DNA of 64,000 nt from Clostridia bacterium. Lineage in GTDB: Bacteria > Bacillota > Clostridia > Oscillospirales > CAG-272. Location: NCBI GenBank assembly GCA_017447775.1, contig JAFSMU010000009.1, positions 4,531 to 68,530 on the forward strand, in the 5' to 3' direction. A program made the position numbers and the translations under genes. Of the stretch, positions 17,101 through 45,903 are shown in pieces (position 1 is the first letter of the stretch; the number at the start of each line of letters is the position of its first letter). The notes beneath the pieces were generated by a model, which had not been told where the DNA came from, ran no database searches, and was given only the letters and a program-made list of their open reading frames with translations.

Positions 17101-17131
17101 AACATCGCGCCGCGGCGCGATGTTTTATTTT
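17098..17131. terminator. Bidirectional terminator
   Basis: Stem AACATCGCGCC / GGCGCGATGTT with flanking A and T runs, between convergent genes. Confidence 0.75.
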
Positions 17132-25156: not shown

Positions 25157-25550
25157 AATCGTGCAAAGACTGTTCGCCGCCGAAAACGAGCTTGACCGCT
25201 TTGATATTCTCGCAATGGCGGCGCTCGGCGCGCCGAAATACCCGCCCGAAATGAAAGACGACGCGCACAGGGTGAACTCTTGCGAAACGAAAACGTGGTT
25301 TTGCGCCGACACAAGCGACACTCTGAAATTTTACGCCGTCAGCGACTCGCTTTTTATCGGCGGGCTTTGTGAGGCGCTTATCGAAGCGTCGCAAAAGCTA
25401 AGTCCGCCGGTGGATCATATCGGCTTTGCCGACGAGTGCTTTGCTCGCGGTATCATAACGGCTCGCCGCCGCGACGGGCTATATGAAATCGAGAAAAAAA
25501 TAATAAAATATATAAACCAAAGGGAGAACAAAAATGAAAAAGGCAATTGA
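25140..25550 (+). CDS. SufE-like sulfur-acceptor protein
   Basis: 136 aa. HRVNSCETKTWF corresponds to the SufE active-site Cys loop. Overlaps both neighbours by 17 nt. Confidence 0.65.
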   Translation: MQENSEIVQRLFAAENELDRFDILAMAALGAPKYPPEMKDDAHRVNSCETKTWFCADTSDTLKFYAVSDSLFIGGLCEALIEASQKLSPPVDHIGFADECFARGIITARRRDGLYEIEKKIIKYINQRENKNEKGN

Positions 25551-28447: not shown

Positions 28448-28475
28448 AAAAAAACCGCCATTGGCGGTTTTTTTA
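28448..28475. terminator. Bidirectional terminator
   Basis: AAAAAAACCGCC-ATTG-GCGGTTTTTTT, between convergent operons. Confidence 0.85.
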
Positions 28476-30761
28476 TTTTAGTTTCTTTTCGTTTGAAAGG
28501 AATCCTATGTAGTCCGTAAGAGCAAGCGGCTTTGAGTAGTAATACCCTTGCACGACCTGGCACCCGAGCTTTCGGAGAAGATCGACTTGTTCCTGAGTTT
28601 CAACGCCCTCCTGAGTTACCTTCATGTGAAGGTCGCGCGCAAGGGATATAATGCTTGAAAGTATCTTCATGTCGCGATCGTGCGAATAGCCGTCCTTGAT
28701 AAAGAATCGGTCAAGCTTGATCTCGTCCATCGGCAATTCCTTCAATATATTATATGACGAAAAACCGGAGCCGAAGTCGTCGATCGAGCATTTGAACCCG
28801 TTTTTGTGAAGCTCATTTACGATGCTGCGAAGCATATCGTAGTCTTCATACGCAAAGCTCTCCGTAAACTCTATCGTGATAAATCCGTCGGCTATGTTGT
28901 ACTGATGTTTCATATCCGTATAGAACTTTACAAAATCCTTTTCCGACGCCGTAATACGCGACGCATTGACAGAAATAGGATAAAGCGGAAGCCCGTTAAT
29001 AACGGCGTCCTGAATATACAGGCACGTCTGCTCGAAAACGTAATGGTCGAGCTTTATAATGAAGCGGTTCGCCTCAAATAGCGGAAGGAACACATCAGGC
29101 TGCATATACTCGTCGCGGCTCGGATTATACCAGCGCACAAGCGCCTCGCAACCGTCTGGACGGTCCTCCGCGATGTTGTATTTTGCTTGGTAGAATACCT
29201 TGAAATCGTGATTTTGAAGCGCGCTTTCCATGTGCGTTTCGATATAATCGTTTTGGATATTGCTTGCATAAAGCGTTTCGTTGTATATTCTGAACGATCC
29301 GAAGTCGCACGGGAATTTCGTTGCGTTTTCCGCGTTTATCGCAAGGTCGATCATCTTTGTTACCGTATCCGCAATTTTACGGTCGGTGGTGTAGATACCG
29401 CCTTGAAGCACGAGCGAAAAGCTGTCGGTAAACTGCGAGCTGTGCTGTGTTGCAAGCGCGACGACGGGAAGAAGTCTGTCCGCAAGGTCGCCGACCTGAC
29501 GGTAATGGAGAAGCAACGCAAATCTGCCGTTTTCAATATAACCGAGCGATTCGTCAAGACCGAGAATGCCGTTGTAAAGAACTTTTAAGTGGCGCACGAT
29601 GTTCAGCATCGTTTCCGTGCCGATCTGCTCTAAAATATAGTCGTAGTGGTTTATGTCGATAACAACGATGGCAAACGACGTCGCCTTGTTTCTCGAAATT
29701 ATTTCGATAGCCACGCGCTCGAATTTCGACCTTGAATAGCACCCGACGGCTTTGTTTACGTCGTTCATCGTCGAAAGAAGTTTTCTGTTGTTGCGTCTTT
29801 CAATGATTCCGTAAATGCCGAGCGCAAGCGCAAGAGCGAAGAATACGAAGAACTCACCGAGGATGACTCTCATCACGTCGTAGCCCGTTTTGTAGATCTC
29901 CTCAGCCATGTAGTAGCCGACAGCCGAGAATATCGCATTGCCGTTTTCTCTCACTCCGCAAACGGAGATAATGCACTTGTCGCCGGCAACGTCAACGGTG
30001 TATTTTTCCGACGTTCCCGCCTCAACGTTTACGCGGAAGCCGTCGAGGATGTTTTTGTCGTTAATCTCATTTCTGAGGATCTCATAGATGTTTCCGTGCT
30101 GCTGTACGTCAACGTTTTCGTCGCGGTAAAGAACCCTTACGATCTCTCCCTGCGCGGCGCAGAAAGCGACGAAGCGCGAGTTTTCGTAATTTTCCGTCGT
30201 GTATGACGCCGAATACGTAACGACACTTGTCACGGGATAACACACCACAAGCATATCGGCGTAGTCAAATCCGTCGATCGGCACGCAGAACGCAACGGTG
30301 CTCAAATTATACTGTCTGTCCGCAATAACGCCGGCGCACGAAAGAGTGCGAAGTTCAGCAGTTTTTTTGACGGCGGGCGCTTCCATTTCGGATTCAAAAA
30401 CCTGCCCCGACACGTCATATTCTTTGTCGTTGTTGAAAAATCTGACGAACATCACATCTCCGAACCGTTCATCCTTTGACAGTCGGTGAAGGCGCGTTGC
30501 AAAGTCGATATCGCTTTCATATTCCATACCGGCGACGGTGTCGGCAAGGCTTTTTGCCTTCATTTTGAACGCGTCGATACTGCTTTTAAGGTTATTTGCC
30601 GCGCCCTCGACAAAGCTAAGCGCAACCTCGCCCGATTCGCGTTCTATCGTTCCCGAATAGTTTGAAAGCATAGCAAAACTGCTGCCTATCATAAGTACGC
30701 AGACAAGACACATTATTATAAGAAAATACCCGCGGGACTTTCCCGAAGATTTCTTTTTCAT
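28473..30761 (-). CDS. Membrane sensor with degenerate GGDEF and intact EAL domain (c-di-GMP phosphodiesterase)
   Basis: Two TM segments flank a roughly 270-aa extracytoplasmic domain. The GGDEF position reads ENGRF. EAL motifs are intact: CEALVRW, IEFTES, SIDDFGSGFSS, KLDRFFI, EGVETQEQ, QGYYYSKP. Confidence 0.85.
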   Translation of the reverse strand: MKKKSSGKSRGYFLIIMCLVCVLMIGSSFAMLSNYSGTIERESGEVALSFVEGAANNLKSSIDAFKMKAKSLADTVAGMEYESDIDFATRLHRLSKDERFGDVMFVRFFNNDKEYDVSGQVFESEMEAPAVKKTAELRTLSCAGVIADRQYNLSTVAFCVPIDGFDYADMLVVCYPVTSVVTYSASYTTENYENSRFVAFCAAQGEIVRVLYRDENVDVQQHGNIYEILRNEINDKNILDGFRVNVEAGTSEKYTVDVAGDKCIISVCGVRENGNAIFSAVGYYMAEEIYKTGYDVMRVILGEFFVFFALALALGIYGIIERRNNRKLLSTMNDVNKAVGCYSRSKFERVAIEIISRNKATSFAIVVIDINHYDYILEQIGTETMLNIVRHLKVLYNGILGLDESLGYIENGRFALLLHYRQVGDLADRLLPVVALATQHSSQFTDSFSLVLQGGIYTTDRKIADTVTKMIDLAINAENATKFPCDFGSFRIYNETLYASNIQNDYIETHMESALQNHDFKVFYQAKYNIAEDRPDGCEALVRWYNPSRDEYMQPDVFLPLFEANRFIIKLDHYVFEQTCLYIQDAVINGLPLYPISVNASRITASEKDFVKFYTDMKHQYNIADGFITIEFTESFAYEDYDMLRSIVNELHKNGFKCSIDDFGSGFSSYNILKELPMDEIKLDRFFIKDGYSHDRDMKILSSIISLARDLHMKVTQEGVETQEQVDLLRKLGCQVVQGYYYSKPLALTDYIGFLSNEKKLK

Positions 30762-31040: not shown

Positions 31041-31733
31041 TTATTGATTTTCATTTGGTTTATTCTGTTCATCGTGTTCGGCTTCGTCCGCGTTTTTCGC
31101 GGCGTTTTCGGCTTTAAGCCTTTCGACCTCTTCACGAATACGCTCGTCGATCTGTTCGCGGTGGCGCCGCTCGATCTCCTCTGTGCGCGCTTTGTTCGCT
31201 TTGATTATGTCAGGCACGTAAATAATCATTATTATAACGAAAATCACCGTAACGGTTATCAGTATTCCTATTCCGGAGAACAAAAATCTGCCGATCGCCG
31301 TCATTACCGGGAGGTTTTTTTCGTAAACGCCGACGACGTTTTCCGCTTTTGCGGTGTATTCGTCTTTTGCGATATTTGCGATGCCCTTTGTAACGAATTC
31401 CTCGTTGTCGCCGATTATTGCTTCAACTCTGTGAGTGTTGAACGCGCCGCCGATGCTCGGATCGTCCGATTTGAACATGATCACGTCACCGACTTTGATC
31501 TTTGAAACGTCAGCCTTTCTGACAAGTATATAGCTTTGCGCCGGTATCTGCGGCTCCATACTCGGAGTCATGACCCACGCCGTCGTTCTGTCAAAAATGA
31601 ATACCGTGTGGTTTGTCATTTTCGAGTACAAAACGACAAGCAACAGCGCGATTATCAGAAAAATCACAATGTAGCCGATCACCTCGGCAACCCTGCGGCG
31701 ACGTTTTTGTGTATTATTCGATTGTTTGCTCAT
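31041..31733 (-). CDS. ER-type (SipW/Sec11-like) signal peptidase I, copy 2, with charged cytoplasmic tail
   Basis: N-terminal TM, then MTPSMEP (catalytic Ser), NTHRV (His), TKGIANIAKDE, a C-terminal TM and a roughly 50-aa Glu/Arg-rich tail. Overlaps the upstream gene by 20 nt. Confidence 0.75.
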   Translation of the reverse strand: MSKQSNNTQKRRRRVAEVIGYIVIFLIIALLLVVLYSKMTNHTVFIFDRTTAWVMTPSMEPQIPAQSYILVRKADVSKIKVGDVIMFKSDDPSIGGAFNTHRVEAIIGDNEEFVTKGIANIAKDEYTAKAENVVGVYEKNLPVMTAIGRFLFSGIGILITVTVIFVIIMIIYVPDIIKANKARTEEIERRHREQIDERIREEVERLKAENAAKNADEAEHDEQNKPNENQ

Positions 31734-33024
31734 CTTCTGTCACATCTCCGCTTGCATTGTCGTTTTCGTCGTTTTCAGGCTCCGGCTCGGGTTCCGGTTC
31801 CGGAATATGTCCGCCGTCGTAGATGAATTCCTCGCCGTTGCCCCTTATCGTATCAGACGCATCGAGCGCGACGTCGATAGATTCGAGAAGGAGCATATCC
31901 TCGGGAGTCAGCGTTGCGTAGCGCGTCTGCGCCGGAGCTGCCGATACCCGCTCGGGCGGCGGATCTTTAAGATCGTATTCGCTTGCGGAAATATCTTTAA
32001 TCTCGTCTATGATCCTCGGTTTCAGCTCGCTCGAAGAAAGCTCGCTTGCAAGCGTGTTTTCCGCGTCAAATTCGTTGTGAATGTTATAGCGGAAAATCAT
32101 ATATTGAAGCGCAAGCGTCGAATACAACTCTTTTACGTAGTTGTCGTCGACGTTTTCAAGGTCTTCCTGCACAAGCATACTGTACCCTGCGCTGTCATAA
32201 CTTTCAATGAACTGCCAAAGCGTCAAGCACTGACGAAGGTTTTTGTTTTTCAGTATCGCGTTTGTACGCATTACGGGAGGTCTTATAAATGCGTGCCCCA
32301 TCTCGCGTACAAACTCGGAATTTGCGTAGTTTGTAACGATGTCGTTCAGTCGCTCGACTCTGTGCCACAGGTCCGTCGTGTACGAATAGTTGCGCTCCAC
32401 GCGGTCGTCGACGCCGCTTGACGGCTCGGCGATTTCAAGGCGGAAGTTCATTTTGACTTTGACTGAATTGTGGTCAAAATCGTCTTTGAACTCTATGCTC
32501 GTCGTCTTTTCGTCCTGCCCTGCGTTTTTTGCGATCTCGTATCTTCTGTTTACGAAAGCGTAAAGTCTGTTTATCAGCGTATTTACGAATTTGTTTTCAT
32601 ACGTAAGCAGCGTTTCGTCGCGGTAGACGTTGAGCAGCTTTGACGGAATTATCATATCGCCGTCGATGCGGGAGATGTAGTTGGTATGCTGGGAGAGATG
32701 TTGAAGCGTTCTTACCGTCACCTTACGGGAAAGCTCGACGGGAACGACCTCCTCTTTTTCCTCGATAAACTTCGACGGGTTGCGGATTATCACGTCGAGC
32801 GCCGGGAGCGTATCCTCGATGATGTTTACCCACGTTTCGTCTATTGCGCGAAGCAGAAAACGCTTGCGAAGCTCGATGGTGGCGTCGCCCTGGCGCATTT
32901 TGTCAAGGATCGTCGGGAATATGTTGTACTCTTGAATGATGCTGTCGATAAAATATATCGAGTCATCATAAACAGAGCGGAACATATTGTCATTTTTGCG
33001 TGGTGTGCCGTTTTGCTGATCCAT
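31714..33024 (-). CDS. McrC-N-terminal/DUF2357-like partner protein without a recognisable nuclease domain; acidic PE-repeat tail
   Basis: Start moved to ATG 33024 (GGAGG 8 nt upstream). LTYENKFVNTLINRLY and LRQCLTLWQFIE resemble the helical DUF2357/McrC core as I recall it. No PD-(D/E)xK pattern was seen. The tail reads PEPEPEPEPENDENDN. Confidence 0.45.
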   Translation of the reverse strand: MDQQNGTPRKNDNMFRSVYDDSIYFIDSIIQEYNIFPTILDKMRQGDATIELRKRFLLRAIDETWVNIIEDTLPALDVIIRNPSKFIEEKEEVVPVELSRKVTVRTLQHLSQHTNYISRIDGDMIIPSKLLNVYRDETLLTYENKFVNTLINRLYAFVNRRYEIAKNAGQDEKTTSIEFKDDFDHNSVKVKMNFRLEIAEPSSGVDDRVERNYSYTTDLWHRVERLNDIVTNYANSEFVREMGHAFIRPPVMRTNAILKNKNLRQCLTLWQFIESYDSAGYSMLVQEDLENVDDNYVKELYSTLALQYMIFRYNIHNEFDAENTLASELSSSELKPRIIDEIKDISASEYDLKDPPPERVSAAPAQTRYATLTPEDMLLLESIDVALDASDTIRGNGEEFIYDGGHIPEPEPEPEPENDENDNASGDVTEDEQTIE

Positions 33025-33037
33025 CTGCGGCACCTCC

Positions 33038-34624
33038 TTAATACGTCATCTTCTGCAAACGCTGCAAGTATTCGATGCACTCGCGCATTTCGCCCTTGCC
33101 GAACAGCTTATCCATATACATTATAAGTCCTCTTATCTCGTCGCGGATGAGCGAAAGGTTGAGTCCTTCAAACTTTCTGAACACCTTTGTCGCAAGGATA
33201 TAATCTATACCTTCGATAGCCGTACCGCCGCACGCGACGTAAACGGGAACGAATACTTTAAGCTGCTTCATAATACGGTTACCGAAAGCAACTCTGAACT
33301 TCTCGATAACGTAAAGGTCGAGCATACCGATCTTTCCGAGCAGGTCGTCGTCAACGGGATGTTCCTTTACTGCCTTTGCATAAAGCTCTTCGACGTATGA
33401 GTAGCTTATGTTCTTCGGCGCCGTGTCTGGCGCGTCAAACGGGACACCCTTTGAATCGAGGTTGATGACAAGCGCACGGTCGTAAACCTTGTCGGAAACG
33501 GCAAACGTCGAGTCGTCGTTGTTGGCGGTACCGATGTACCATACGTTCTGCGGTATCTGAAGCTTACCGTCGCGAAGGTGGATCGGGTCGCCCGGCCATG
33601 CAGACGGAACAAGCTCTATTTTCCACTCGCTCGGGTTCGGCATTTCAAGGATCGAAAGCATCTCCGCGAAGTAATACTCGACGCGGGCAATGTTCATCTC
33701 ATCGAGGATGATGATGTTGATGTCATCGTTGAATGACGCCTCGTAAATACGTTTCAGCACTTCCGTTTCGTTGAATTTCTTTGTAAATTCGTTGAAGAAG
33801 CCGAACAGCTCAGTGCGATCTCTCCACGACGGCTGAACCGACGCTATCGTCGAGTCTACCTGGAAGTACTTGCCGAGCATATACGGAAGCGACGTTTTAC
33901 CTGTACCTGATATACCTTGAAGCAGTATAAGCTTTGTTGAAGCGAGTCCGGCGATCATAAGGCGTATCGTCTTGATTTCATAATACAGTTTACTTCTCGA
34001 ACAAGCGAAGTTGCGTATATCGTCGCACATCTGTTCAAGCGTGAACGTGCGGTCATAGACAGGCGGCACGTAGTATGTGTATTTTTCGTCCACAGCGGAC
34101 AGACGGTAGAAACGCTTTGCGTTGGAATCCACCGTGATCTCTTTCTTTTCCCCGCTATCAGCCGACGCGGCAACGGCAGGCTGAGACGCAGCTGCGGGCA
34201 CGCCCTCTTTTTCGCCGAAGAACTGGCGAAGCTCCTCGTAAGTAACGCCCGAAGGATCGAACTTGTATGCCATGATCCTTTCCTTCTCAGCCGTAAGACG
34301 AATAACGTCGCGGTGAAGGTCAGCTATCTCTTCAAGCATATCCTCGTTTCCGACAAGCGTCTTTCTGAAACGGATGTACTTTCTGATGCCTATCACTATC
34401 AGGAAAATAATACTTGCAATTATAGCATAAGTAAGTATAACCGTCAGGATACACAATATCCACGCAAGGACGTTGAAGTCGCCCTTGTAGCGAGAGAGCT
34501 GGTCAAATAGGACCGGAAAGTTGAAAAACTGAAATATTGCGTTGAATATGCCTTTAAGCCCCTCCCAGAGTCCTGAAAGGATGGTAGTCATAAAGGCAAA
34601 AAACCAATTCATAAATGCATCCAT
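33038..34624 (-). CDS. Membrane-anchored McrB-like AAA+ (AAA_5) GTPase
   Basis: Hydrophobic N-terminus (aa ~5-22 and ~51-80) followed by a coiled coil. Walker A LLQGISGTGKTS (aa 234-245), Walker B IIILDEMN, McrB-type NIARVEYYFAEMLSILE, IGTANNDDS (NxxD) and YDRA. Confidence 0.78.
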   Translation of the reverse strand: MDAFMNWFFAFMTTILSGLWEGLKGIFNAIFQFFNFPVLFDQLSRYKGDFNVLAWILCILTVILTYAIIASIIFLIVIGIRKYIRFRKTLVGNEDMLEEIADLHRDVIRLTAEKERIMAYKFDPSGVTYEELRQFFGEKEGVPAAASQPAVAASADSGEKKEITVDSNAKRFYRLSAVDEKYTYYVPPVYDRTFTLEQMCDDIRNFACSRSKLYYEIKTIRLMIAGLASTKLILLQGISGTGKTSLPYMLGKYFQVDSTIASVQPSWRDRTELFGFFNEFTKKFNETEVLKRIYEASFNDDINIIILDEMNIARVEYYFAEMLSILEMPNPSEWKIELVPSAWPGDPIHLRDGKLQIPQNVWYIGTANNDDSTFAVSDKVYDRALVINLDSKGVPFDAPDTAPKNISYSYVEELYAKAVKEHPVDDDLLGKIGMLDLYVIEKFRVAFGNRIMKQLKVFVPVYVACGGTAIEGIDYILATKVFRKFEGLNLSLIRDEIRGLIMYMDKLFGKGEMRECIEYLQRLQKMTY

Positions 34625-34657: not shown

Positions 34658-34686
34658 GCCGTTATGCGCCGACAGCGCATAACGGC
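34658..34686 (-). other. Perfect 12-bp intergenic stem-loop between sipW copy 1 and the McrB-like gene
   Basis: GCCGTTATGCGC / loop CGACA / GCGCATAACGGC. No U-tract on either strand. Possibly an RNA processing or stability element. Confidence 0.45.
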
Positions 34687-34701: not shown

Positions 34702-35487
34702 TTATTCCTCGGTCGTTTTCGTTTGCTCTTCCCCGGTCGTTTCCGCGGGAGCTTCCGCTTCTTTTTCTGTTTTTGGCTCTTCGTTGTCTTCGCCGCTCTG
34801 AGCTTTTTGCGAGCGGATGTATTCCTCAATGGCTTTCTGTTTGATAAGCTCTTCGTCTTCCGCCGTTATCTGCTTCTTGCCCGCGTTCTTGACTTCCATG
34901 ATCTTACGCACGAACATAATGATCTCAAACAGGAAGAATATTATCAGCGGTATAACGATAACCACAAAGAATCCCGTAGGTGTAAGGAGGAATTTGATAA
35001 CGCTTCCGAGCACGGGGATGCGCGTGTCCTTTGCGGGATCGAAAATGCTTATAACGTCGGCGGCGCTTATCGTGTATGTGTCCGCAATGGCGTTGTTATC
35101 GCCTTTTGTTCTGTATGTAACAGAGCTGCCGGAGCCGATAACCTCGGAAATTCTGTGAGTGTTCACCTCAGGAGTTCCGTCACCGTCAAGGTCAACTTTG
35201 AACGTGATAATGTCGTCTACTTTAAGCGAGGTCTTTTCCTCATCGGCAAGCTTGCGGCTGAAAATAATGTCGCCTTCCTTTATGGTCGGGGACATTGAAT
35301 TGGAAAGCACCGGGCTCATTACCTTTCCGCCTATCGTCGGAACGCCGTCAGCGCTTGACTGCGCGGAAAAAGCAAAGATCGTAATCACTACCGCAAAAGC
35401 GATGAAGAGCCACATCAGAACGTTGCCGATGATCCCCCATACTTTCTTTGCTTTGCTTGTCGTTTTCACTGTTGACTGGTTATCCAT
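34702..35487 (-). CDS. sipW: ER-type signal peptidase I (SipW-like), copy 1, with charged cytoplasmic tail
   Basis: Contains SNSMSPTIKEGD (Ser), NTHRI (His), TKGDNNAIAD, a C-terminal TM and a roughly 70-aa Glu/Lys-rich tail. SD is GAGAGGA. Confidence 0.85.
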   Translation of the reverse strand: MDNQSTVKTTSKAKKVWGIIGNVLMWLFIAFAVVITIFAFSAQSSADGVPTIGGKVMSPVLSNSMSPTIKEGDIIFSRKLADEEKTSLKVDDIITFKVDLDGDGTPEVNTHRISEVIGSGSSVTYRTKGDNNAIADTYTISAADVISIFDPAKDTRIPVLGSVIKFLLTPTGFFVVIVIPLIIFFLFEIIMFVRKIMEVKNAGKKQITAEDEELIKQKAIEEYIRSQKAQSGEDNEEPKTEKEAEAPAETTGEEQTKTTEE

Positions 35488-35581: not shown

Positions 35582-35610
35582 ATTATATAATATAAAAATA
35601 ATTTTGTAAA
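35582..35610 (-). promoter_or_regulatory. Sigma-A promoter TTTACA-17-TATAAT for the sipW / McrB-like unit
   Basis: On the minus strand: -35 at 35605-35610, exactly 17-nt spacer, -10 at 35582-35587. Lies downstream of the giant-gene terminator. Confidence 0.6.
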
Positions 35611-35707: not shown

Positions 35708-38700
35708 TTAAGGTTGCTTTTCGGGTATGAAATCCGGGATTATACGTGCGTTTGTGTAGATTATAAAGTTGCTGCTTTCCGACGGATGAAGCTCGTCATA
35801 TCCGCCGCCACCGTCGCTCTTTATAAGCTTGACGGACAATACGATCTTGTAATTCGAATACGTCAGATTCCTGCTTTCAAATTCGCTGCCCGTAAGGACG
35901 GTGAAGTTTATCGGGATCAGCAGTTTTTCGCCCGTTATGTCGTCAATATCATCCCTGTTCATGATGAACTCGTAAGTTGAGCCGCTTCTGCTCGACGAAA
36001 CGGCGGTGACGCCTTCAAGTGAGACGTCGGTCATATACGTTCCCACATTTAGCGGAGTCGTATATCCGTCAGACTTGCAGAAAAGCTGAATACTTGCCAT
36101 GACAAGATCGTAGTCTTCTGCCAAGTCGATTATCGTACTGATGTCTTGCTCGCCTATCGTGCGGATAAGTATCCTCGTAAGGTTATTCGAATCGAGAGGA
36201 TTTATACCGAGAGAGCCGTAATCGCCGAATTCGGAGTCGTTTCTGACGTTGAATTCAAGTTTTGCCGACTTTGTTTCGCGGTAGTAGTAAACATGGGCAT
36301 TATCATCAGACATCGATTCCGATGATTTGCTGAACGCCGTCGTCGATGCGTCATATCCCATATTTGAGCTGCCGGAAATAACAGTACCTATCGTTCTGTC
36401 CGTAACATCGGTCTTGGCCGGGAACTGATCGGTGATGTTCCCTTCTCCAGAATATTCGATCGATACGCTCGCCGTTATCGTAACGGCTCCACGCAGCATT
36501 CCGTTGTTGTCATACAGGTAGCTGTTCAGCGGAACGTTGTTAGAAAATTCGATATAGCTTTCTTTTTGGTCCACCGAAGGATAACTCGTGCTTGCGGAAC
36601 CCGCTATCGAATACGTGCCGGAGCATGCGGGCGAGCCGACGATGAGCTTTCTGCTTGCGCCGCTTGAATCGGTCATCGTGAGGTTTATCAAAAAGCTTTG
36701 ATAAATATGTATTCCCGACGAACTGTTGGGCGCGAGGTATCCGCTGACTTGCGGAGAAATCGTATTGTCAACACTTACGGATACGCTCATATCGGCGGTA
36801 AGCGTGCGGTTTGTCGTCGACATCTCTTCGACGCCGTTCGTCGCCCAAAGCGTAGCGTCATCTTGAATGAAGATGTTGCCCATTATCAGACGCGCGGTGC
36901 CGCTTCCCTGCTGCAGTTCATGAATATCGTTTACACGGGACGGGTATTTAGGATCCGCAAGATCGGTATCCGTCGAGATCGAGTAGTTGCTGACGGAAGT
37001 GCTGTCATTTGCCTCCGTGAAGAACGAGATATAGTAGCTTTCATTAGCGTCAACATATTTATAATGAGGATCCCCGCTGTCCGAAATATAGGTATTCTTG
37101 ACAGTAAGTTTATAATGCTGTTTGCTTGAATCGGTGGCTTCCGCGATCCTGAAGAACTTCGTCGTTCCGTTCTTCGATGCTTTTGCCGTGGCAACGCCTT
37201 CCGATTCCGCCTCGACAAATCTGCCGCCCGTTTCCGTTTCATATTCGATATCCAAAAGATCGGTCAGCGGTATCGGCGAAAACTTTGCCGAATTTGGATC
37301 GTCGAGATCTTCAGTAAACTTGGACAAGTCTATATATCCGTTCTTGTATGCGTCGCCAAAGCGGGCGTAATACGGCTTACCGCCTCTGTTTCTGTCGACA
37401 AGAACAAGGATCGTATCGTCGTCAAGAGGGCTTGCCGATCCCGTGTTTTCAAATTTGATCATCTTGTCGTAATTTCGGTAAAGTTCCCCGTTGTCGAGGG
37501 CGATCTGCCATTCTTCGACAGAGCGCATATAAAAGTACTCGAAATAAATGCTTACAGGTGCGCCGAGGTTTTCCATAAGCGGTTTGCCGAATCTGCTGTC
37601 ATCGGTCAGCGGGTCTCCGTCGGGATCGCTGTACCAGTTGTGATCGTAGTTCGTTCCCGCGCCTGTGGCGACCTTGAACTCGTACACCATGAGTTTTTTA
37701 ACGATCACTGGTATATACAGGTGATATGCGACTTTTCCCGAGTCGTTGGGATCAAAGAACTTGACGTCGATAAGCGTGAACATCGTTCCCGACGTATCGT
37801 AGTCGACACCCGTCATGTAGAATTCGCCGTTCGATGTGTCTCTTCCGAGGTTTGCCGCCTCGCTTGACTTCACAAAGCCCGAGTTTTCATCAAATTCCAT
37901 GCGGTATATTCCCACATCATAAACGTTTGAAACGTTTGACGTATAATCATATTTTGTATTTGCTATGATGTTAATATACGAATTGATCATTTCCGTGGTA
38001 TTTGCACGCGAAACGTCTTCAACAACGAGGACCGCAAAGTCATCTGTAAGAGAAGTTCCCTGCTCTGCTTTGAACGTTGAAAGCTTGGACAAATACTTGT
38101 TGAATTTTGTTATATATTCAGCGGAATATTTATACAGCTTTTGTCCGTTTTCGTTCTTTATATCGTAGAATACAAGACCTTCTATGGTGCTTGAAATACC
38201 TTCTTTGGTGCTTGAAATACCGTCGCCCGTGAGATGTAAATGATTGTCTCCTATCGGGAGATACGGATTTCCGACAACGTAAGGCGAGTGTTCGTCAACG
38301 TTTGTTTCGCCGTTTACGGAAATATAGGACGTGTTATTGTTGACGCCGAGAGATGTGCCGTCGTAGTCGGCAAGAACGACGTAGCCGTTCGTGCCGAAAT
38401 ATCCCTTGTTTGAATCGTTTGAATCATAATGCGCCACAGGTGTTACGGAATTTCCGGTTGCTGCTCCGCCCTGAACAGACACGCCGACAAGTTTGATGAC
38501 GGCAGATTTTGCGTTTGTTCCGACGATCAGACCGACACTTCTATTGCCGCTGGCGGTATATGTTACGTCGTTTATCAAAATGTTATGCCCGTAAAGAGTT
38601 CCGTTATCGGAAAGAGAGCCCGCCAAGCCGCCGATGCCATATAAATACTCGTCACTTGCACTTGAAACATTTGAAATTCTTTCTAGATAACAGTTCTGCA

Positions 38701-41700
38701 GAATCACATCTTCAAGATCAACATAGTTTCCACTGCCAAGAGCCAGTGTTCCGAATAAGCCGCCGGCACCCGCTTTTTCCGCGTTTTTGGAAGATAAGAT
38801 CTGATAATCGTTTATGAAAATTTCAGACAATTTAAGAGTAACGCCGGAGTTGAAGTTATATCCGATAATGCCGCCGGTCATATTTGTTCCGTCGATTTTT
38901 TTGTCCTGATTTCCGGTGTTGCCGTTAATGGTGACATTTTTCATCGATCCGGTAATGCCGTTTCGCGAGCATCCGATAATGCCGCCGACCGTGTTTCCGA
39001 AAATATCGACGCCCTCGACGGTACAGGTATCAAAATCAAGTTTTGATTTTTCAATTCTTCCGAACATACCGCCGAGCATGACCTTATATCTCATGTCGCT
39101 CGGTTTTCTGTTCCTTTTGGTTGCGTTGATAATTCCGCCGGTAACTTTGACGTATTTTACCGTCATTGTTTTTGAAGTACTATTTGTACTTGCATATCCG
39201 CAAATGCCTCCGCCACAGTGGAACATCTGGCTGAAATCCTTGAAATCTATCTTTGCGCAGCTCGGCTCGCCTTTCACTTCGACTTTAGTAAGCCCGATCA
39301 CAGCCGTGTTGTTTGAACTTCCGGTGATGGACAGAGTTGCGTTGTTAAAATATCCGATAAGACCGCCCGCACAGAATCCCGCGGTAACGCTGAGATTGCT
39401 TGCGCTCGGATCGGTTATCGTAAGTGTTTTGGCATTATCATATCCGATAAGACCGCCTACGTATTTTGCACCTTCAACAGAAAAATCGTTCGGCGATGCG
39501 CCCGTGCCGAGAGCTACATTTGTGATGTATGTAGTATTTGCAATAGTTCCCGCAAGACCACCTGCGTGAAGAAGCGTATTTGCCTCTATTCTGTCCTGAA
39601 CGTCTGGATAAAAGCCGGTCGTATTATTATAGTTGTGCCATTCGTAAGCATAGAGTATATTCGCACCGTTTGACGCCTTTCTGACGTCGTAGAATACGCT
39701 GCCGGTAAGAGTCAGATTTTCAATACAGTTGGTGCTTGAAGCACTCATGTGATACATGTTGTTGAACAAACCGAATCCCGAATTTTCAACAGCCTTGTAA
39801 TTTTCTATAGTCGCTATAGTCGTGTTGGATTTTGTGCTTTGATTCCCCGATTCATGGTTGTATTCCTGATAGAAAATATCCATGTTTATCGTTGCCCCGC
39901 CGGGTCCGCCGGTGAGCTTTTGGAAGCGGAGTTTGAAAGCATTGGAAGTGCTGAAATTGTTGCCGATGCCGCGATATCCCGCGCCGATATCGGCATCCGA
40001 AACGGTAATTGTCGATACGGCGGCATTGTCTCCGTTGCCGCAGATGCTTCTCGCGCGGTACATATTGTTGTCTTTTGTCGTGTACTGACGAACGATATAC
40101 GGTATCTTCGTGCTTCCGCTGAAAACGTTTTTAGACGCAACATTGTCAAAGTAGTCGTGGCCCGAGGCGTTGACGGCGTCTGTTCCGACCTCATCGAAGT
40201 TTCCGTTTCTCGCGCAGGTGTAGCTTCTGTAAGCACTGTACGGATTCTTTAACGTGTTGTCATACGCCTTTTCGGTGCTTGCATTGTACTGTGCACTTCC
40301 CGCGCCGCTGTTGACGATGGCTGCAAGAACGTAAAGCGCCTGACCGTCAGCTATCGTTATCTCGTGGCTCGACGCACTCGACGCCGTAACCGTAACATTG
40401 AGCTTCGTTCCGTTCGGGTCGAGATCGGGGATAGCATAGTTTTTCGTGCCGTTGTTCATTGTCACGGCACTTGAATTGCAGTTATAAGACGATGTCTCCG
40501 TAAACGCATATCCCGATACTACCCTGCCGATAATCGGGTTCACGTAAAGATATTTCGCCGTTCTCGTCGAATACTCGGAGAGTAGTGCGCTTGTGTTACT
40601 GTCCGTAACCGTTGCGTCATTTATCCTTGCGCATACAGAGGCGGTCAGACCGGTGTGGGTCGCCGATTCCATATTGCGGAAGATCACACCGCCGCTGACA
40701 ACAACGCCGACATATCCGCCAACGGGAGCAAGATTCACACAGGTGGAATTATTATCAAACGTGATGGACGCCGACTCGCCGAACGTAACGCCTACATTAT
40801 CGATTATATTATCGCCTCCCATAACACGCCCGATGACCGTGCCGTAAGCAGAGCAACCGCCTTCATACTGGAAAGTGGCGACCGTCGCTTGCGTTACCGT
40901 AACCGTCGCGTCAAGCTGTACGATCAAATTCTTTATGACGCAGCCGTTCGACGCATAGATGAGCGGAACGTTCGATTTGTTGACTATCGTCGGATATACG
41001 CCGGCATTGTTGCGTCCCACTATAACGCCGCGGAACGCGTACGGACTTTCGTAATTGTCGGTCGCAACGGCGCCGTTGGACGCGCCGAGCCCGTAAAATC
41101 CGCTCGCCGGTATTGTAACGGTACTTGCTATCTCGTAGTACGCGCCCGCAAGATATTTTCGCACGCTGAGTTTTTCTTCTGCCGTCAAATTGTTGTACGT
41201 ATATTCGACGTCGGTGGCGTTATCAGAGCACCACATGGTCGGCGACGCATAGTCTGTCGGAAGAGTTATTTTGAAGTTCGCGTCAACCGAATCTCCACGT
41301 ATTATCTGCGATATGGAGACGAGTTGTTTGCCCGACGTGATGACATACGGGTGGTTGTATTTTCCGCATCCTTCCGTAAGCGATGCGGAAGTGAGGTTTA
41401 CGGAAAGTTCGTGTTTGAACTCCGCATTGTTGTACGCGACGTAAACGTACGGCAAAAATCCCGTGCTGAACGAGAAATTATCTGTCGTCGTCAACGAAGT
41501 GGGGTTCGTGAAATAGTCGCTCGCGAGGTAGTTTTTCTGCTCGTTCGGGTGTTCCAAAGAAGACGTTACTTCTTTACCGTATGTAACTTTATGCAAAGCG
41601 GCTCCGCCGGCAGTCCAGTCTTCATCAAACGCATAGTTATATACGCCAGAGCAGTTCGTGTTATACATGAAGCTGTCGAGAAGCGTGGCGCGCGAGAAGA

Positions 41701-44700
41701 TCGTCGTCGAAGTGCCGTATTTCGACGTCAAACTTTCGTCTGCATCGGAATTTGACAATGCTGAAGTGCGCGCATCGAGAGCGATGTGCGAGAAGTTGAG
41801 GTTTATATCCTTTGCCGTGGTCGAGCCGACCAAGCCGATAAGGCTGGACGCGGCATAACCCGACAGTCCGGAATATCCGGCCGCCGACGTGCTGACGTTG
41901 TTCAGCGTCAGGTTTGTGTTCAGCGCCACTTTATTGACGAGAAGCGGAGCGTATTTCCATACGGCGTCGACCTGTGCCGATGCGCCGGAAACCTTTGCGC
42001 CGTCGAGCGAAATGCTGCCGCTGCACGTCAGCGTCGTTCTGTTGTCGGAGTCGCCGCCGAGCGTTCCGCAGATGATGAATCCCGAACCGAAATAGTTGAG
42101 CGAAACGTCTCCCTGAAGTGTGAGTTTGCCGGCAAGATTCAGCGAGCCGGTGTAATTCTTGAAAAGACCGGCGTGCATGAGATAATGCTGGGTATAATCG
42201 CCGCCGGACGAAGCACGAAGAGTCGTGCGGGCAAAACCGTCTCCGCCGCCGAGAGCTTCTCCTGCTTCTATCTTTGAGTTATAGAATTTGAGAGTCGAGG
42301 TATTTATTCTCATACCGGTCGCGTCAACGGGATAGTATGAGTATCCGTTCATATCATACGTTCCAGAAAGAGTCGATTCGAGAGGATTATTAAACAGCGT
42401 TTTGAGTTTAGAGTGAGCGTATCTGTTAAGACTCCACATCATAAGTTTTTGCGGATCCGACAGAGACCCTGACGCTGTTGTACGGAAAGTATCGAGATTA
42501 TAGTAATAACGCGTGTTTTTGTTCGATTTGGTCGCGTACGACGTTTGATTCTGATATGTATTGCATGCGCTGCCGTCCATTACAAGCGGAGCGCCGCCCG
42601 CCGTGCGAATGGATACAATGGCCTGACCGTTATCTTCGATATTGGTGCCGGGAACAACGGTATAGGCAACTATTTCATCGAAAACGGAATACGTGCCTGT
42701 CAAATTCGTTGCGGATATATCGTATCCGTCCGAAACGAGTTCGAGATAGAGTGCGGAATAGAGTGCGGAGTTGCCGTCCGACGAATAGCCGTCGTTAACA
42801 ATAAATCCGAAGGAATCAGCGGTGACACCCGTGCTGATTTTCGCCTGATTGACCAAAACGTGATTTACACGCCAGTAACCCGTTCCTTTATATACAAGCG
42901 CCGCCACGTTGACGTTTGACGATCCGGAAGCAACGCTGATCGAAGGCGGATTTGCGCCGCTGCCGCCTATCGTTACGCCGTCGGTGCTTCCGTCTGTGCC
43001 GATGACAACGTTCGTATCAAGCCATGCCCAGCCGAGGAACGCACCGGATCCGGCTTTCCTTGCGTCGGAGTTCGACGTTTTCGTCGTTATAGACGTGCCG
43101 TTCGGTATCGTTACGTTATTAAGCTGAACGGTGCGCGTATTTAAGCTCGCGTTTGTTCCTGCTTTGACGATATAGCAGATAAGACCGCCGTAGCGCGAGT
43201 CTGTATACTGCGTTGAAGATGAGTTTGAATACGAGCCGCCGACTGACGTATCGTCAACGTCAAAAGTAATACTTCCCGTGGTGGCGACATAACCGATCGC
43301 TCCGCCGAAATACGTGCTGGAGTTTATTTTATCGGCTGCCATTGTGTTTTTAACGGTCGTTGTAGTACCAAACACGCAGTCGTCGATTTTGATTGTGCCT
43401 ACGGAATCCAAATCTATGTATCCTACGGCGCCGCCGCAGTAAACGTAGTTGTCTTTGTTGGTAACATAAACTATATTTTCCTGGCTTGTCGTAACGTTAT
43501 TGAGAGTCAGCGCTTTGCCGGATGTGGTATTCGACGAAGCGATGAGTCCGCCTATGCGAAGAGACGAATCTTCGACGACGGAAAAATATCCGTCAATCGT
43601 CAGATCCTTTATCGTTGCGTTGCTCGTTTTCGAGAAAAGTCCCTGGAAATTATGTCCGCTTGACGAAGCCCTTATCGTGCCGAAACCGTTATTGCCTCTG
43701 TCGTTGACTGAATCTATTTTCGCAAAAGTATTCTTATATCCGTACGGCTCTCCGACGGCAAATGTTATTTTATGATTGCCGCCGTCGAACGTTCCGCTGT
43801 ATACGTATTCGACTGATACGTCCTTATCACGCATAAACCCGAGAATGCCCGTGCCCGAAAGGTCGATGTCGGCCGAAAGACTCAGATTCGACGAAAGAAG
43901 TTGTTTTCTGCGGGTAGACGTCGATGCGAATTTCAACGCGCCGCGATCCTGATCGTTGAGCTGAATATTGAGCGCCGTTTTGATGAAATCTTTGACCGTG
44001 CCAATAGACAAAACGGGATTTTCAACGGTAACGGTATGTTCTGTAGTGCCGAGCGTAAAGAAATCACTTTCCAAAAGTCCGTTTGCCGTGCTGAGACGAA
44101 GCACTTCGCCCCAGTCGTTTATGTCGTTGACGTTGCTGTTTGCGCGGATGAAAGTCCATCCCGATCCCTCGTCAGTTCCAGATCCGAGCGCGTAAACCAG
44201 CCCGTCGCCGCGCGTGCCGACAAGGTGAGCAGTTGAAAATTGAGCGCCGTGGAAATCGGTAGTTCCCTGTATACGCACAACGCCCGAGCCCTGGTTGCTG
44301 ACAAGCCCCGAATTGAATTTTGATCCGGTTGCGTGGATAGTGCCGCTTATATCAAGAAAGCTTCCCGCTGCATCGTTCATTCCGCCGACAAGCGCCGCAG
44401 ATAAATTCGAAGCGCTTCCGGAAGAATTCACCGAAACGCCGCTGATACTTGAATATACAGGATTACTGTAAAATTTCCCTATGATTCCTCCGCTTATTGT
44501 TCCGTTTGAAATGTTCATATGAACATTGGTATTTTGAACATTTAATTCTTTTTCAAGCGGAGCTGTCGCATTGTTTACATAAGTGCCGATCACACCGCCG
44601 CAGTTTTTGCAGTTTTCAAAAGACACTTTTTTGTTATACGTCGGATTTGTCGAAACGTGAGCGGGATTTCCGCTTGTCGTCAACGTGTCTCCGCCGTCAA

Positions 44701-45859
44701 CGGTAACGCTGACAGACGTTTCGAGCTTGCCGATTATTCCGCCGCAATCCGCCGACTGCGGCATCCCGCTCGAGCTGCTGCCCGCGGTGAAATCCGTTTT
44801 TATCTGCGAAAGATCAAAAGTGCGCACGTCGGCTGAAGCACCGGTGCCGTTCCCTTTCGTGCTTTCGTAATAACCGTATATGCCGCCCGCACCGAGATTG
44901 CCGACTACGTTTTTGGTGATATTTATCGTTTTGCCCGATCCGATCTCAAGCTCTGCATTTTCGGCGTGTCCCGCGATCCCGCCGCCGAAGCCGGAAGAAG
45001 AAACGACTTTGCACACAGAAGTAAAGTCATCGTCGTCATCGTCGATTATAAGTATAAGCTTTGCGCCGTCTTCCATTTTGCCGACGATACCGCCAGCATT
45101 TGCTCCGGACGAGGTAACGGTAAATTCGGAACTTGCGGTGATCTTTGCCGTGAGTTCGGCTCCGGATTTCATGGTTCCGCAAATCGTGCCGACGTCATTT
45201 GCGCTTACAACGTTTGATACGCCGCTTGAGTTATCTGATGAGAAGAAAGATGTATGGGTAAACTCGATATTCGCCTTTGCTCCTTCTTCCATAGTGCCGA
45301 TAACGCCGGCAAAACTGTAAGCGTGTTTGTTTGCATTGTCGCGCGCGTCGACGTCGAGAGTTATTTTCCATTCAACCGACGAGCCCGACTGCTCCACGTA
45401 GTCCGCAAATATCGGCTTGTCGACGCCATCAACCGTTCTGTGAAGTATGAGTTCTCTAGAGTGTTTGTTTTCGTCAACTATTTCAGCGCCTGTCGTTATT
45501 CCGCCGAAAAGCGACGTCTGAAGATAAAACTCATTTGTTGCGCTACTCGGTATGACTATCTTGCCGTTGAACGGACGCGCTTTCGTTCCTATCCCGACAA
45601 ACGTGCTGTCGAGCTCGAAACTCGAACCGCTTGCAAGCGAAAAGTTAAGCGTGTCGTTCGGGTTGCGGTTGCCGGCGGCATACGCGGCGGCGTATGTTAC
45701 AAGAGCTTCAGAATCGTTAATTGGTATTTGTTGCGGAGCTTCTTCTGCGTGAACGGTATTATTGCTCAGTGCGAGCATCGCCGTAAAAACGAACGCGAAC
45801 ACAAAGGCGCATGACAAGATCCGCCTTAAATTATTTTTGTTGTGTCTTACTGTTTTCAT
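35708..45859 (-). CDS. Giant (~3,383 aa) secreted GLUG-motif / parallel beta-helix surface protein
   Basis: Single uninterrupted ORF. ATG 45859 preferred (GGAAGGA SD). Sec signal peptide ends in VHA-EE. More than 20 GG(I/L)(I/V/A)G-type GLUG-like repeats from about aa 260 to 2420. The roughly 970-aa C-terminal region is non-repetitive. No LPXTG, TM, SLH or dockerin was seen. Confidence 0.85.
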   Translation of the reverse strand: MKTVRHNKNNLRRILSCAFVFAFVFTAMLALSNNTVHAEEAPQQIPINDSEALVTYAAAYAAGNRNPNDTLNFSLASGSSFELDSTFVGIGTKARPFNGKIVIPSSATNEFYLQTSLFGGITTGAEIVDENKHSRELILHRTVDGVDKPIFADYVEQSGSSVEWKITLDVDARDNANKHAYSFAGVIGTMEEGAKANIEFTHTSFFSSDNSSGVSNVVSANDVGTICGTMKSGAELTAKITASSEFTVTSSGANAGGIVGKMEDGAKLILIIDDDDDDFTSVCKVVSSSGFGGGIAGHAENAELEIGSGKTINITKNVVGNLGAGGIYGYYESTKGNGTGASADVRTFDLSQIKTDFTAGSSSSGMPQSADCGGIIGKLETSVSVTVDGGDTLTTSGNPAHVSTNPTYNKKVSFENCKNCGGVIGTYVNNATAPLEKELNVQNTNVHMNISNGTISGGIIGKFYSNPVYSSISGVSVNSSGSASNLSAALVGGMNDAAGSFLDISGTIHATGSKFNSGLVSNQGSGVVRIQGTTDFHGAQFSTAHLVGTRGDGLVYALGSGTDEGSGWTFIRANSNVNDINDWGEVLRLSTANGLLESDFFTLGTTEHTVTVENPVLSIGTVKDFIKTALNIQLNDQDRGALKFASTSTRRKQLLSSNLSLSADIDLSGTGILGFMRDKDVSVEYVYSGTFDGGNHKITFAVGEPYGYKNTFAKIDSVNDRGNNGFGTIRASSSGHNFQGLFSKTSNATIKDLTIDGYFSVVEDSSLRIGGLIASSNTTSGKALTLNNVTTSQENIVYVTNKDNYVYCGGAVGYIDLDSVGTIKIDDCVFGTTTTVKNTMAADKINSSTYFGGAIGYVATTGSITFDVDDTSVGGSYSNSSSTQYTDSRYGGLICYIVKAGTNASLNTRTVQLNNVTIPNGTSITTKTSNSDARKAGSGAFLGWAWLDTNVVIGTDGSTDGVTIGGSGANPPSISVASGSSNVNVAALVYKGTGYWRVNHVLVNQAKISTGVTADSFGFIVNDGYSSDGNSALYSALYLELVSDGYDISATNLTGTYSVFDEIVAYTVVPGTNIEDNGQAIVSIRTAGGAPLVMDGSACNTYQNQTSYATKSNKNTRYYYNLDTFRTTASGSLSDPQKLMMWSLNRYAHSKLKTLFNNPLESTLSGTYDMNGYSYYPVDATGMRINTSTLKFYNSKIEAGEALGGGDGFARTTLRASSGGDYTQHYLMHAGLFKNYTGSLNLAGKLTLQGDVSLNYFGSGFIICGTLGGDSDNRTTLTCSGSISLDGAKVSGASAQVDAVWKYAPLLVNKVALNTNLTLNNVSTSAAGYSGLSGYAASSLIGLVGSTTAKDINLNFSHIALDARTSALSNSDADESLTSKYGTSTTIFSRATLLDSFMYNTNCSGVYNYAFDEDWTAGGAALHKVTYGKEVTSSLEHPNEQKNYLASDYFTNPTSLTTTDNFSFSTGFLPYVYVAYNNAEFKHELSVNLTSASLTEGCGKYNHPYVITSGKQLVSISQIIRGDSVDANFKITLPTDYASPTMWCSDNATDVEYTYNNLTAEEKLSVRKYLAGAYYEIASTVTIPASGFYGLGASNGAVATDNYESPYAFRGVIVGRNNAGVYPTIVNKSNVPLIYASNGCVIKNLIVQLDATVTVTQATVATFQYEGGCSAYGTVIGRVMGGDNIIDNVGVTFGESASITFDNNSTCVNLAPVGGYVGVVVSGGVIFRNMESATHTGLTASVCARINDATVTDSNTSALLSEYSTRTAKYLYVNPIIGRVVSGYAFTETSSYNCNSSAVTMNNGTKNYAIPDLDPNGTKLNVTVTASSASSHEITIADGQALYVLAAIVNSGAGSAQYNASTEKAYDNTLKNPYSAYRSYTCARNGNFDEVGTDAVNASGHDYFDNVASKNVFSGSTKIPYIVRQYTTKDNNMYRARSICGNGDNAAVSTITVSDADIGAGYRGIGNNFSTSNAFKLRFQKLTGGPGGATINMDIFYQEYNHESGNQSTKSNTTIATIENYKAVENSGFGLFNNMYHMSASSTNCIENLTLTGSVFYDVRKASNGANILYAYEWHNYNNTTGFYPDVQDRIEANTLLHAGGLAGTIANTTYITNVALGTGASPNDFSVEGAKYVGGLIGYDNAKTLTITDPSASNLSVTAGFCAGGLIGYFNNATLSITGSSNNTAVIGLTKVEVKGEPSCAKIDFKDFSQMFHCGGGICGYASTNSTSKTMTVKYVKVTGGIINATKRNRKPSDMRYKVMLGGMFGRIEKSKLDFDTCTVEGVDIFGNTVGGIIGCSRNGITGSMKNVTINGNTGNQDKKIDGTNMTGGIIGYNFNSGVTLKLSEIFINDYQILSSKNAEKAGAGGLFGTLALGSGNYVDLEDVILQNCYLERISNVSSASDEYLYGIGGLAGSLSDNGTLYGHNILINDVTYTASGNRSVGLIVGTNAKSAVIKLVGVSVQGGAATGNSVTPVAHYDSNDSNKGYFGTNGYVVLADYDGTSLGVNNNTSYISVNGETNVDEHSPYVVGNPYLPIGDNHLHLTGDGISSTKEGISSTIEGLVFYDIKNENGQKLYKYSAEYITKFNKYLSKLSTFKAEQGTSLTDDFAVLVVEDVSRANTTEMINSYINIIANTKYDYTSNVSNVYDVGIYRMEFDENSGFVKSSEAANLGRDTSNGEFYMTGVDYDTSGTMFTLIDVKFFDPNDSGKVAYHLYIPVIVKKLMVYEFKVATGAGTNYDHNWYSDPDGDPLTDDSRFGKPLMENLGAPVSIYFEYFYMRSVEEWQIALDNGELYRNYDKMIKFENTGSASPLDDDTILVLVDRNRGGKPYYARFGDAYKNGYIDLSKFTEDLDDPNSAKFSPIPLTDLLDIEYETETGGRFVEAESEGVATAKASKNGTTKFFRIAEATDSSKQHYKLTVKNTYISDSGDPHYKYVDANESYYISFFTEANDSTSVSNYSISTDTDLADPKYPSRVNDIHELQQGSGTARLIMGNIFIQDDATLWATNGVEEMSTTNRTLTADMSVSVSVDNTISPQVSGYLAPNSSSGIHIYQSFLINLTMTDSSGASRKLIVGSPACSGTYSIAGSASTSYPSVDQKESYIEFSNNVPLNSYLYDNNGMLRGAVTITASVSIEYSGEGNITDQFPAKTDVTDRTIGTVISGSSNMGYDASTTAFSKSSESMSDDNAHVYYYRETKSAKLEFNVRNDSEFGDYGSLGINPLDSNNLTRILIRTIGEQDISTIIDLAEDYDLVMASIQLFCKSDGYTTPLNVGTYMTDVSLEGVTAVSSSRSGSTYEFIMNRDDIDDITGEKLLIPINFTVLTGSEFESRNLTYSNYKIVLSVKLIKSDGGGGYDELHPSESSNFIIYTNARIIPDFIPEKQP

Positions 45860-45903
45860 GGCTGTTCCTTCCGTATTCTTCAAAATGTCGGGAAATCAAT
45901 ATC

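Follow-up and report, generated by a model that had tools for sequence, protein, structure and literature searches.

The 64,000-nucleotide (nt) window analysed here, the whole stretch of DNA from positions 4,531 to 68,530 of contig JAFSMU010000009.1 (forward strand; GenBank assembly GCA_017447775.1; a Clostridia bacterium of the Oscillospirales lineage CAG-272), encodes a membrane-anchored McrB-like AAA+ NTPase, protein A, and a McrC-like partner in which no nuclease was detected, protein B. From the gene context we conclude, with moderate confidence, that the A-B pair has a dedicated role in the biogenesis of a secreted, SipW-dependent surface fibre, and not in restriction. The mechanical details of how the pair would act are less certain than this role. 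A and B share one operon, in which they stand between two genes for SipW-type signal peptidases. An earlier note on this DNA had proposed that the motor was exapted either for envelope or secretion work or for abortive infection; because the pair is flanked by two SipW genes and travels with secreted subunits and cyclic di-GMP (c-di-GMP) enzymes, the first option is favoured, whereas the same context makes the second less likely. The genes at the centre of the argument are the following (lengths in amino acids, aa).

34702..35487, minus strand: first SipW-type (archaeal/endoplasmic reticulum-type) signal peptidase I, 261 aa, upstream of A; matches TIGR02228 and SipW NF046067
33038..34624, minus strand: protein A, membrane-anchored NxD-type McrB-like AAA+ NTPase, 528 aa, from the listing of open reading frames (ORFs)
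31714..33024, minus strand: protein B, McrC-like DUF2357 protein, 436 aa counted from the ATG at 33024
31041..31733, minus strand: second SipW-type signal peptidase I, 230 aa; matches TIGR02228 and Pfam Peptidase_S26

The ORFs of A and B that the earlier note had located are both present on the minus strand, and its assignment of A to the McrB family is supported by the motifs, by PDB and NCBIfam, and by AAA_5 matches of relatives. Protein A consists of amphipathic helices (residues 2-49), a membrane helix (52-80), a stalk (83-121), a disordered linker (122-167) and an AAA+ domain (171-528). Walker A (GISGTGKTS) lies at residue 237, Walker B (IIILDEMN) at 304, NIARVEYYFAEMLSILE at 311, GTANNDDS at 365 and YDRA at 381, and K243 of Walker A, D308 and E309 of Walker B, the sensor N368, D370 and R383 are intact. 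The AAA+ domains of Escherichia coli McrB were the sole PDB sequence matches of A, both for the single sequence (E 1.5e-3) and, for McrB again, with a 53-sequence profile of the A family (E 3.9e-5); the NCBIfam McrB model matched A as well (E 4e-4). Of the hidden Markov model searches proposed in the note, that for DUF2357 succeeded in B, as described below, and that for Pfam AAA_5 did not reach the window protein A at E<=1, although 51 of 53 relatives match this family (best E 2.5e-7). The AlphaFold2 model of A, with a mean predicted local distance difference test score (pLDDT) of 82.6 and about 90 in the AAA+ part, comprises helices 2-24, 26-33 and 36-49, a single continuous helix 52-121, the disordered linker and a confident AAA+ domain. 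Top Foldseek matches of the modelled domain were MoxR, MCM, dynein, RavA and NorQ (E down to 1.7e-7), neighbours that place the predicted fold in the AAA_5-type group. McrB was not among the top 50 Foldseek matches, so that membership of A in the McrB family rests on sequence, signature motif and partner gene.

That signature motif differs from the NxxD that had been read in IGTANNDDS. Among 150 family representatives it is GTAN-x-D-[D/E]-STF: the residue after the asparagine is N, K, T, H, S, Q or R, an invariant aspartate stands at +2, and D, E, Q or G at +3. The window protein has N368-N-D370-D371, which, judged by its sequence, corresponds to the NxD form of Bell et al. (2024; eLife 13:RP94800, PMC11090510) and not to the NxxD of McrB. 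The N-terminal region was likewise only partly as described. Of the approximately 80 hydrophobic residues that had been taken for transmembrane helices, residues 52-80 alone form a confident membrane helix (mean Kyte-Doolittle value 2.84), whereas residues 2-49 form aromatic amphipathic helices (mean 0.25-0.9). The basic sequence RKYIRFRK directly follows the membrane helix, and by the positive-inside rule this places the NTPase in the cytoplasm. The coiled coil said to replace the DNA reader of McrB corresponds to the stalk, helix 83-121, in which hydrophobic residues recur with a heptad-like spacing of 3-4 (M96, I100, L103, V107, L110 and I117). No DNA-binding N-terminal domain was found in residues 1-121, which are made up of the amphipathic helices, the membrane helix and the stalk. 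Median identity within A is 82% in the stalk and 83% in the AAA+ domain, and 27% in the linker. In a PDB profile search, the N-terminal region resembled ATP synthase subunit b (E 0.011); in Pfam, neither FtsB nor DivIC was matched by the N-terminus of any of the 53 members, within the list of the 25 families that were matched most often.

Protein B begins at the ATG at 33024, 13 nt past the stop codon of A, which GGAGG follows immediately. The start had previously been placed at a GTG 4 nt downstream of A, but this codon lies within the ribosome-binding site of B. Pfam DUF2357 (PF09823, the N-terminal domain of McrC) was found at 36.6 bits against a curated cut-off of 23.3, over residues 71-178 and including LTYENKFVNTLINRLY. 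The closest Foldseek match was E. coli McrC (6hz4_M; probability 0.92, with a weak TM-score of 0.21-0.25). Both results agree with the McrC/DUF2357-like character originally attributed to B. The AlphaFold2 model is confident in residues 60-165, 220-280 and 360-400 and weak in 280-355; it contains a long beta-hairpin (172-201), a conserved helix (364-396) and no helix longer than approximately 27 residues, and past residue 290 it consists of helices and disorder only. The acidic PEPEPEPE tail pointed out before is present and comprises 48 residues.

It is very improbable that A and B are a normal restriction enzyme of the McrBC type in which the nuclease or the DNA reader was overlooked. The weakly modelled stretch 280-355 would leave room for a small cryptic domain in B, but no nuclease family was detected in B by Pfam at E<=1, NCBIfam or PADLOC, and the last two gave no match to B at all. 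Searches of PDB with the single sequence and with a profile of B returned no match, no nuclease was among its Foldseek matches, and relatives of up to 702 aa owe their extra length to low-complexity acidic or EEARAKAEEE-type (EEAK-type) helical tails only. On the side of A, the N-terminus is a membrane helix and stalk with no DNA-binding fold. A hidden nuclease fold in the partner, for which the earlier note had proposed structure prediction, was therefore not found by Pfam, by the PDB sequence searches, in the AlphaFold2 model, by Foldseek or in the tails of relatives. B is a DUF2357/McrC-type protein without detectable nuclease, and the claim that a motor with neither a DNA-binding nor a DNA-cleaving part does not fit restriction was upheld by the membrane helix and stalk of A and by the lack of a nuclease in B and in the conserved cluster.

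This cluster was defined by a scan of loci with one genome per species, which gave 61 loci; their sources are without exception uncultured Bacillota of the rumen or gut, mostly Clostridia. Layout counts were made among the 55 full-length species-representative loci. In 48 of 49 testable loci, the gene immediately downstream of the A homologue encodes a DUF2357 protein, and the pairing of A and B is well above chance. The pair is embedded in a fixed order of eight genes: EAL, 255-aa anchored paralogue, secreted subunit(s), SipW, A, B, SipW and GGDEF-EAL. A SipW gene was found no more than 900 nt upstream of A in 50/53 loci and downstream of B in 40/41, a GGDEF-EAL gene downstream in 30/35, the 255-aa membrane protein upstream in 20/30, and an EAL-only protein upstream in 16/30. 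The best conserved protein of the cluster is A, with a median identity to the window of 67%, compared with 37-49% for its neighbours. No other nuclease is encoded in the conserved cluster, where the neighbours are SipW, subunits, EAL and GGDEF-EAL proteins only, and neither mobile-element genes nor a toxin domain were seen in it.

These observations bear directly on abortive infection. As an anti-phage defence system, the membrane McrB-like ring and its McrC-like partner would sense infection and damage the membrane or block fibre production, and the phages sensed would possibly use the fibre as receptor. Defence genes are usually patchy in distribution and fast-evolving, whereas here more than 50 species keep the same gene order next to fibre genes and A is the most conserved member of the cluster, unlike the usual pattern of such genes. 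The conserved cluster also offers no mobile-element gene, nuclease or toxin domain, and B matches no PADLOC model. Nevertheless, the A-B pair descends from a restriction system, and the AAA+ core of A, over residues 210-329 only, matches the PADLOC candidate-defence profile PDC-M26A (E 1.6e-34). The family also has forms with multiple membrane helices and soluble forms in other contexts, and the related NxD systems known as CoCoNuTs are predicted defence systems in the article text of Bell et al. (PMC11090510). On balance we regard a defence function as unlikely.

The two flanking peptidases are part of the context that favours fibre biogenesis. The first SipW scored 79.5 bits against NCBIfam TIGR02228 (cut-off 51.85) and E 4e-32 against SipW NF046067; the second scored 80 bits against TIGR02228 and exceeded the cut-off of Pfam Peptidase_S26. 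The SipW equivalog model gave scores below its own cut-off for these peptidases, though TIGR02228 was passed. In the first SipW, SMSP and THR motifs are visible and the C-terminal membrane helix is followed by a charged cytoplasmic tail, and in the second a C-terminal membrane helix precedes a charged helical tail. Both peptidases carry the SM.P serine and THR histidine motifs, together with long charged tails after the C-terminal membrane helix, and both appear catalytically plausible. B and the second SipW gene, counted from its ATG, share 20 nt at the end of B. Two further elements accompany the operon.

35582..35610, minus strand: promoter-like site TTTACA-17-TATAAT, upstream of the SipW-A-B-SipW block; a consensus match only, at 11/12 positions
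34658..34686, minus strand: perfect 13-bp hairpin, GCCGUUAUGCGCU...GGCGCAUAACGGC, without a T-run, in the 77-nt spacer between the first SipW gene and A

The hairpin has a predicted RNA folding energy of -26.5 kcal/mol (z -4.36); it may serve for processing or for stabilisation.

The presumed cargo of the system is encoded upstream of the first SipW gene, as follows.

49944..50711, minus strand: membrane-anchored subunit paralogue, 255 aa, by hhalign against the subunit family
49057..49878, minus strand: putative major secreted fibre subunit, 273 aa, with the conserved signal peptide MKK..LIPA..MLL.SA.L..TSTYA|WFSMN..VTATGM
48870..48897, minus strand: strong intrinsic-terminator-like hairpin, 12-bp stem and T-run, directly after the major subunit gene
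47717..48700, minus strand: candidate minor subunit, secreted, 327 aa, with the common N-terminal motif GWFAANKQVTADDMSV
35708..45883, minus strand: giant secreted protein with Sec-type signal peptide, 3391 aa, a candidate for accessory cargo or adhesin

Genes between that for the 255-aa protein and the first SipW gene encode proteins of 240-390 aa. The N-termini of the subunits are nearly identical between species, MKKLIPAL.MLLVSA.LLGTSTYAWFSMN..VTATGM, with A27 and W28 invariant in 29 homologues. The SipW-cleaved end of TasA, the fibre protein of Bacillus subtilis, is T-W-A|A-F-N-D, with the general form T-[W/Y]-A | x-F. The 255-aa protein has an Arg-rich N-terminus, an uncleaved membrane helix in place of the signal motif, and a C-terminal domain with the W.EG.D..C motif of the subunit; hhalign aligned its family with the subunit family over 119 columns (probability 96.8%, E 2e-10). 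The anchored paralogue is a candidate base or initiator of the fibre. In the 327-aa protein, hhalign found similarity to the subunit over residues 37-68 (probability 92%).

From this context the following course of fibre biogenesis can be proposed. Protein A would assemble as a hexamer, and B would plug its pore and stimulate nucleoside triphosphate (NTP) hydrolysis, as McrC does for McrB. Since no nuclease was found, the output of the pair would be mechanical: a conformational change driven by NTP might travel along the stalk and through the membrane helices into a complex in the membrane that includes the SipW peptidases. Their charged tails on the cytoplasmic side are candidate points of contact. 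These peptidases would cut the subunits at TSTYA|WFSMN, and the freed N-terminal strand would polymerise onto the anchored paralogue, by analogy with the donor-strand exchange of TasA. In this way the SipW complex might couple subunit cleavage to polymerisation, and c-di-GMP turnover could set the timing of fibre assembly. The analogy draws on B. subtilis, where TasA is cleaved by SipW, is mature from residue 28 and polymerises via the new N-terminal strand, residues 28-38 (PMC9674648).

A different role in the same pathway would be regulation or quality control, with A-B gating SipW activity or signalling via the tails, or pulling signal peptides after cleavage, or precursors that have stalled, out of the membrane. 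We consider this rather unlikely, if somewhat less so than defence. Both SipW proteins do carry long charged cytoplasmic tails and the cluster is rich in c-di-GMP enzymes, and in B. subtilis the C-terminus of SipW gives the protein a second function, in regulation, that does not depend on its peptidase activity (Terra et al. 2012, as cited in PMC9674648). Such a module nevertheless has no direct support, and extraction by threading through the pore is a poor fit with the solved complexes, in which McrC plugs McrB-type rings (PDB 6hz4 and 6ut6).

Several points weigh against fibre biogenesis as the function of the pair. The subunits have no match in Pfam, NCBIfam or PDB, either with a single sequence or with the 29-sequence profile, so that the label 'fibre subunit' rests on signal peptide, gene order and multiplicity. 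To our knowledge, the tapA-sipW-tasA system of B. subtilis operates without an NTPase, and an energy requirement is therefore not obvious. A cytoplasmic ring could act on the cell exterior only via the membrane. The model of B is of moderate confidence (mean pLDDT 65), and the AAA+ core resembles a candidate-defence profile, as described above. Finally, we found no follow-up in the literature on the class to which the locus belongs, nor experiments on any of its members.

This class was named CoCoPALM by Bell et al. (2024), who in one paragraph of the article describe it as a large NxD clade and defer its analysis; the text-format supplementary files of that article contain nothing on CoCoPALM. 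As far as that paragraph describes the class, the locus is a CoCoPALM-type system, and it is thus less novel than the earlier note implied. Protein A has the NxD motif, usually then D or E in the class, and its NTPase is fused N-terminally to a membrane helix and a coiled-coil helix (helix 52-80, then heptad-like to 121). The partner is a DUF2357 McrC homologue, and the association with the signal-peptidase family is represented here by the two SipW-type genes that flank the pair. The McrC homologues of the class usually have a fused coiled coil, whereas B has a short acidic tail and some relatives have long helical tails. The N-terminus is described as FtsB-like by Bell et al., a homology that Pfam did not reproduce here. 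To the text of that article our analysis adds the conserved layout of eight genes, the subunit paralogue with its membrane anchor, the invariant motif of the signal peptides, a ranking of the cluster proteins by conservation, and the finding from structure that the partner has no detectable nuclease.

Comparison with other systems helps to delimit the locus. The Walker A and B motifs, sensor asparagine and arginine of E. coli McrBC (PDB 6hz4, 6ut6 and 7vsr) align with those of A, the N-terminal DUF2357 domain of McrC is found in B, and the two genes are adjacent in both. Unlike McrB, however, A has NxD instead of NxxD, a membrane anchor and no DNA-binding N-terminal domain, while B is without the PD-(D/E)xK nuclease and the context is one of secretion genes, not restriction-modification genes; the locus is not a canonical McrBC system. 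With the CoCoNuTs (CnuB/CnuC) it shares the NxD branch and, according to the article text, McrC homologues that are often without an active nuclease (PMC11090510). CoCoNuTs as described there have no membrane anchor and are always accompanied by a nearby nuclease, HEPN or other, whereas this cluster has no nuclease; because of this missing linked nuclease the locus is not a CoCoNuT. The likeness to PADLOC PDC-M26 extends to the AAA+ core of A only.

As in tapA-sipW-tasA of B. subtilis, a dedicated SipW-type peptidase adjoins its secreted substrates, the end of the signal peptide resembles that of TasA, and a subunit-related accessory protein is present, TapA there and the anchored paralogue here. 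That system has one SipW and is controlled by SinR, whereas two SipW genes and c-di-GMP enzymes are found here, and the subunits are without sequence similarity to TasA. Homology of the subunits to TasA or camelysin was considered and set aside, given that Pfam, NCBIfam and PDB gave no sequence or profile match; 'TasA-like' is kept as an analogy only. Type IV pilus and Tad systems (PilB, PilC and PilD) offer a works-like analogy, with a cytoplasmic hexameric NTPase, a dedicated peptidase, and major and minor subunits sharing an N-terminal motif. Their ATPase family is unrelated, however, and in place of their aspartic prepilin peptidase the locus has a type I enzyme; the hydrophobic segment of the subunit is predicted to be removed here and is kept there.

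More speculatively, the SipW-A-B-SipW block and the anchored paralogue might form the core of a third Gram-positive surface-fibre machine, apart from sortase pili and type IV pili, in which an NTPase ring derived from McrBC, with a McrC lacking its nuclease as the plug, would transmit force through the membrane and thereby couple the type I cleavage of signal peptides to an ordered polymerisation of the subunits, with c-di-GMP in control. We put this forward tentatively. If true, this would show plainly how a motor for DNA restriction became one for secretion or assembly, and the case would be widespread among Bacillota of the rumen and the human gut. Even the broader role proposed here would, if correct, mean that McrBC-type motors reach past nucleic-acid defence and, at the membrane, also drive or control the formation of protein fibres. 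The family is abundant in uncultured rumen and human-gut bacteria, and gut Bacillota may have an apparatus for adhesion or biofilm formation, so far unrecognised, that relies on this family.

The AAA+ core is represented by 8172 sequences at 50% clustering (E<=1e-3), which have one or two membrane helices, four to six, or long soluble N-termini; all forms match PDC-M26A. A metagenome scan with a 36%-identical relative returned several gene layouts. The triad of a SipW peptidase, a McrB-like membrane protein and a McrC-like protein without nuclease is found again in a distant clade of human-gut 'Bacilli' (approximately 35% identity). There the SipW and McrB-like genes overlap, a GFAAW signal motif is present in the upstream genes, and the gene after the McrB-like one encodes the McrC-like protein, which is divergent and ends in a zinc ribbon (hhalign probability 93.8%). 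The recurrence of the triad in this clade indicates that it is old and recurrent. A protein search for a cultured host with the human-gut clade matched only proteins of metagenome-assembled genomes. In one locus of the 'Bacilli' clade (L141), a resolvase gene (6715-7320, minus strand) lies in opposite orientation just upstream of the subunit genes, an arrangement that may hint at phase variation, and an ABC ATPase and two large unannotated proteins are encoded after the McrC-like gene (13058-17832, plus strand). Some relatives (L062-L068) have two McrB-like paralogues flanking one DUF2357 gene, with no SipW detected nearby, and another locus (L051) has two A-B pairs approximately 10 kb apart.

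Among the remaining proteins of the fibre region, the giant 3391-aa protein has no Pfam match at E<=1e-3 and has homologues in three related loci only (L002, L003 and L024), from which we conclude that it is accessory to the cluster. The proteins encoded at 46940-47695 and 45904-46911 (both minus strand) have an N-terminal membrane or signal segment (TYSWFYV and VSYAEYT, respectively) and weak or no similarity to the subunit profile. A VirArc_Nuclease match in the latter, 335-aa protein (E 0.0048) was below cut-off and was treated as a chance match. The C-terminus of the 255-aa anchored paralogue (49944-49990, minus strand) is a SENSENSENSENSENQN tail, the antisense of which reads as an IFGIFGIFG repeat inside a spurious ORF (49866-50738).

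Two EAL-domain proteins border the fibre genes.

50711..51577, minus strand: EAL-only protein at the head of the cluster, 288 aa; Pfam EAL E 6.4e-20
28473..30761, minus strand: membrane protein with complete EAL domain, candidate c-di-GMP phosphodiesterase, 762 aa; Pfam EAL E 2.7e-56

EALVRW and DDFGSG motifs are visible in the 762-aa protein, which is the downstream gene product counted above in 30/35 loci. Farther upstream, a c-di-GMP-I riboswitch at 54951-55025 (minus strand; Rfam RF01051, 50.1 bits against a gathering score of 35) precedes the gene for a 475-aa GGDEF protein (53267-54694), and a second GGDEF gene lies at 51793-53196 (plus strand). The riboswitch and the GGDEF genes place the fibre cluster in a c-di-GMP-rich neighbourhood. 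At the other side of the cluster, two tandem genes for 483-aa paralogues (25534-26985 and 26982-28433, plus strand) overlap at their stop and start codons, and one of the two proteins has a sub-threshold match to the C-terminal domain of L-fucose isomerase (E 2.8e-4).

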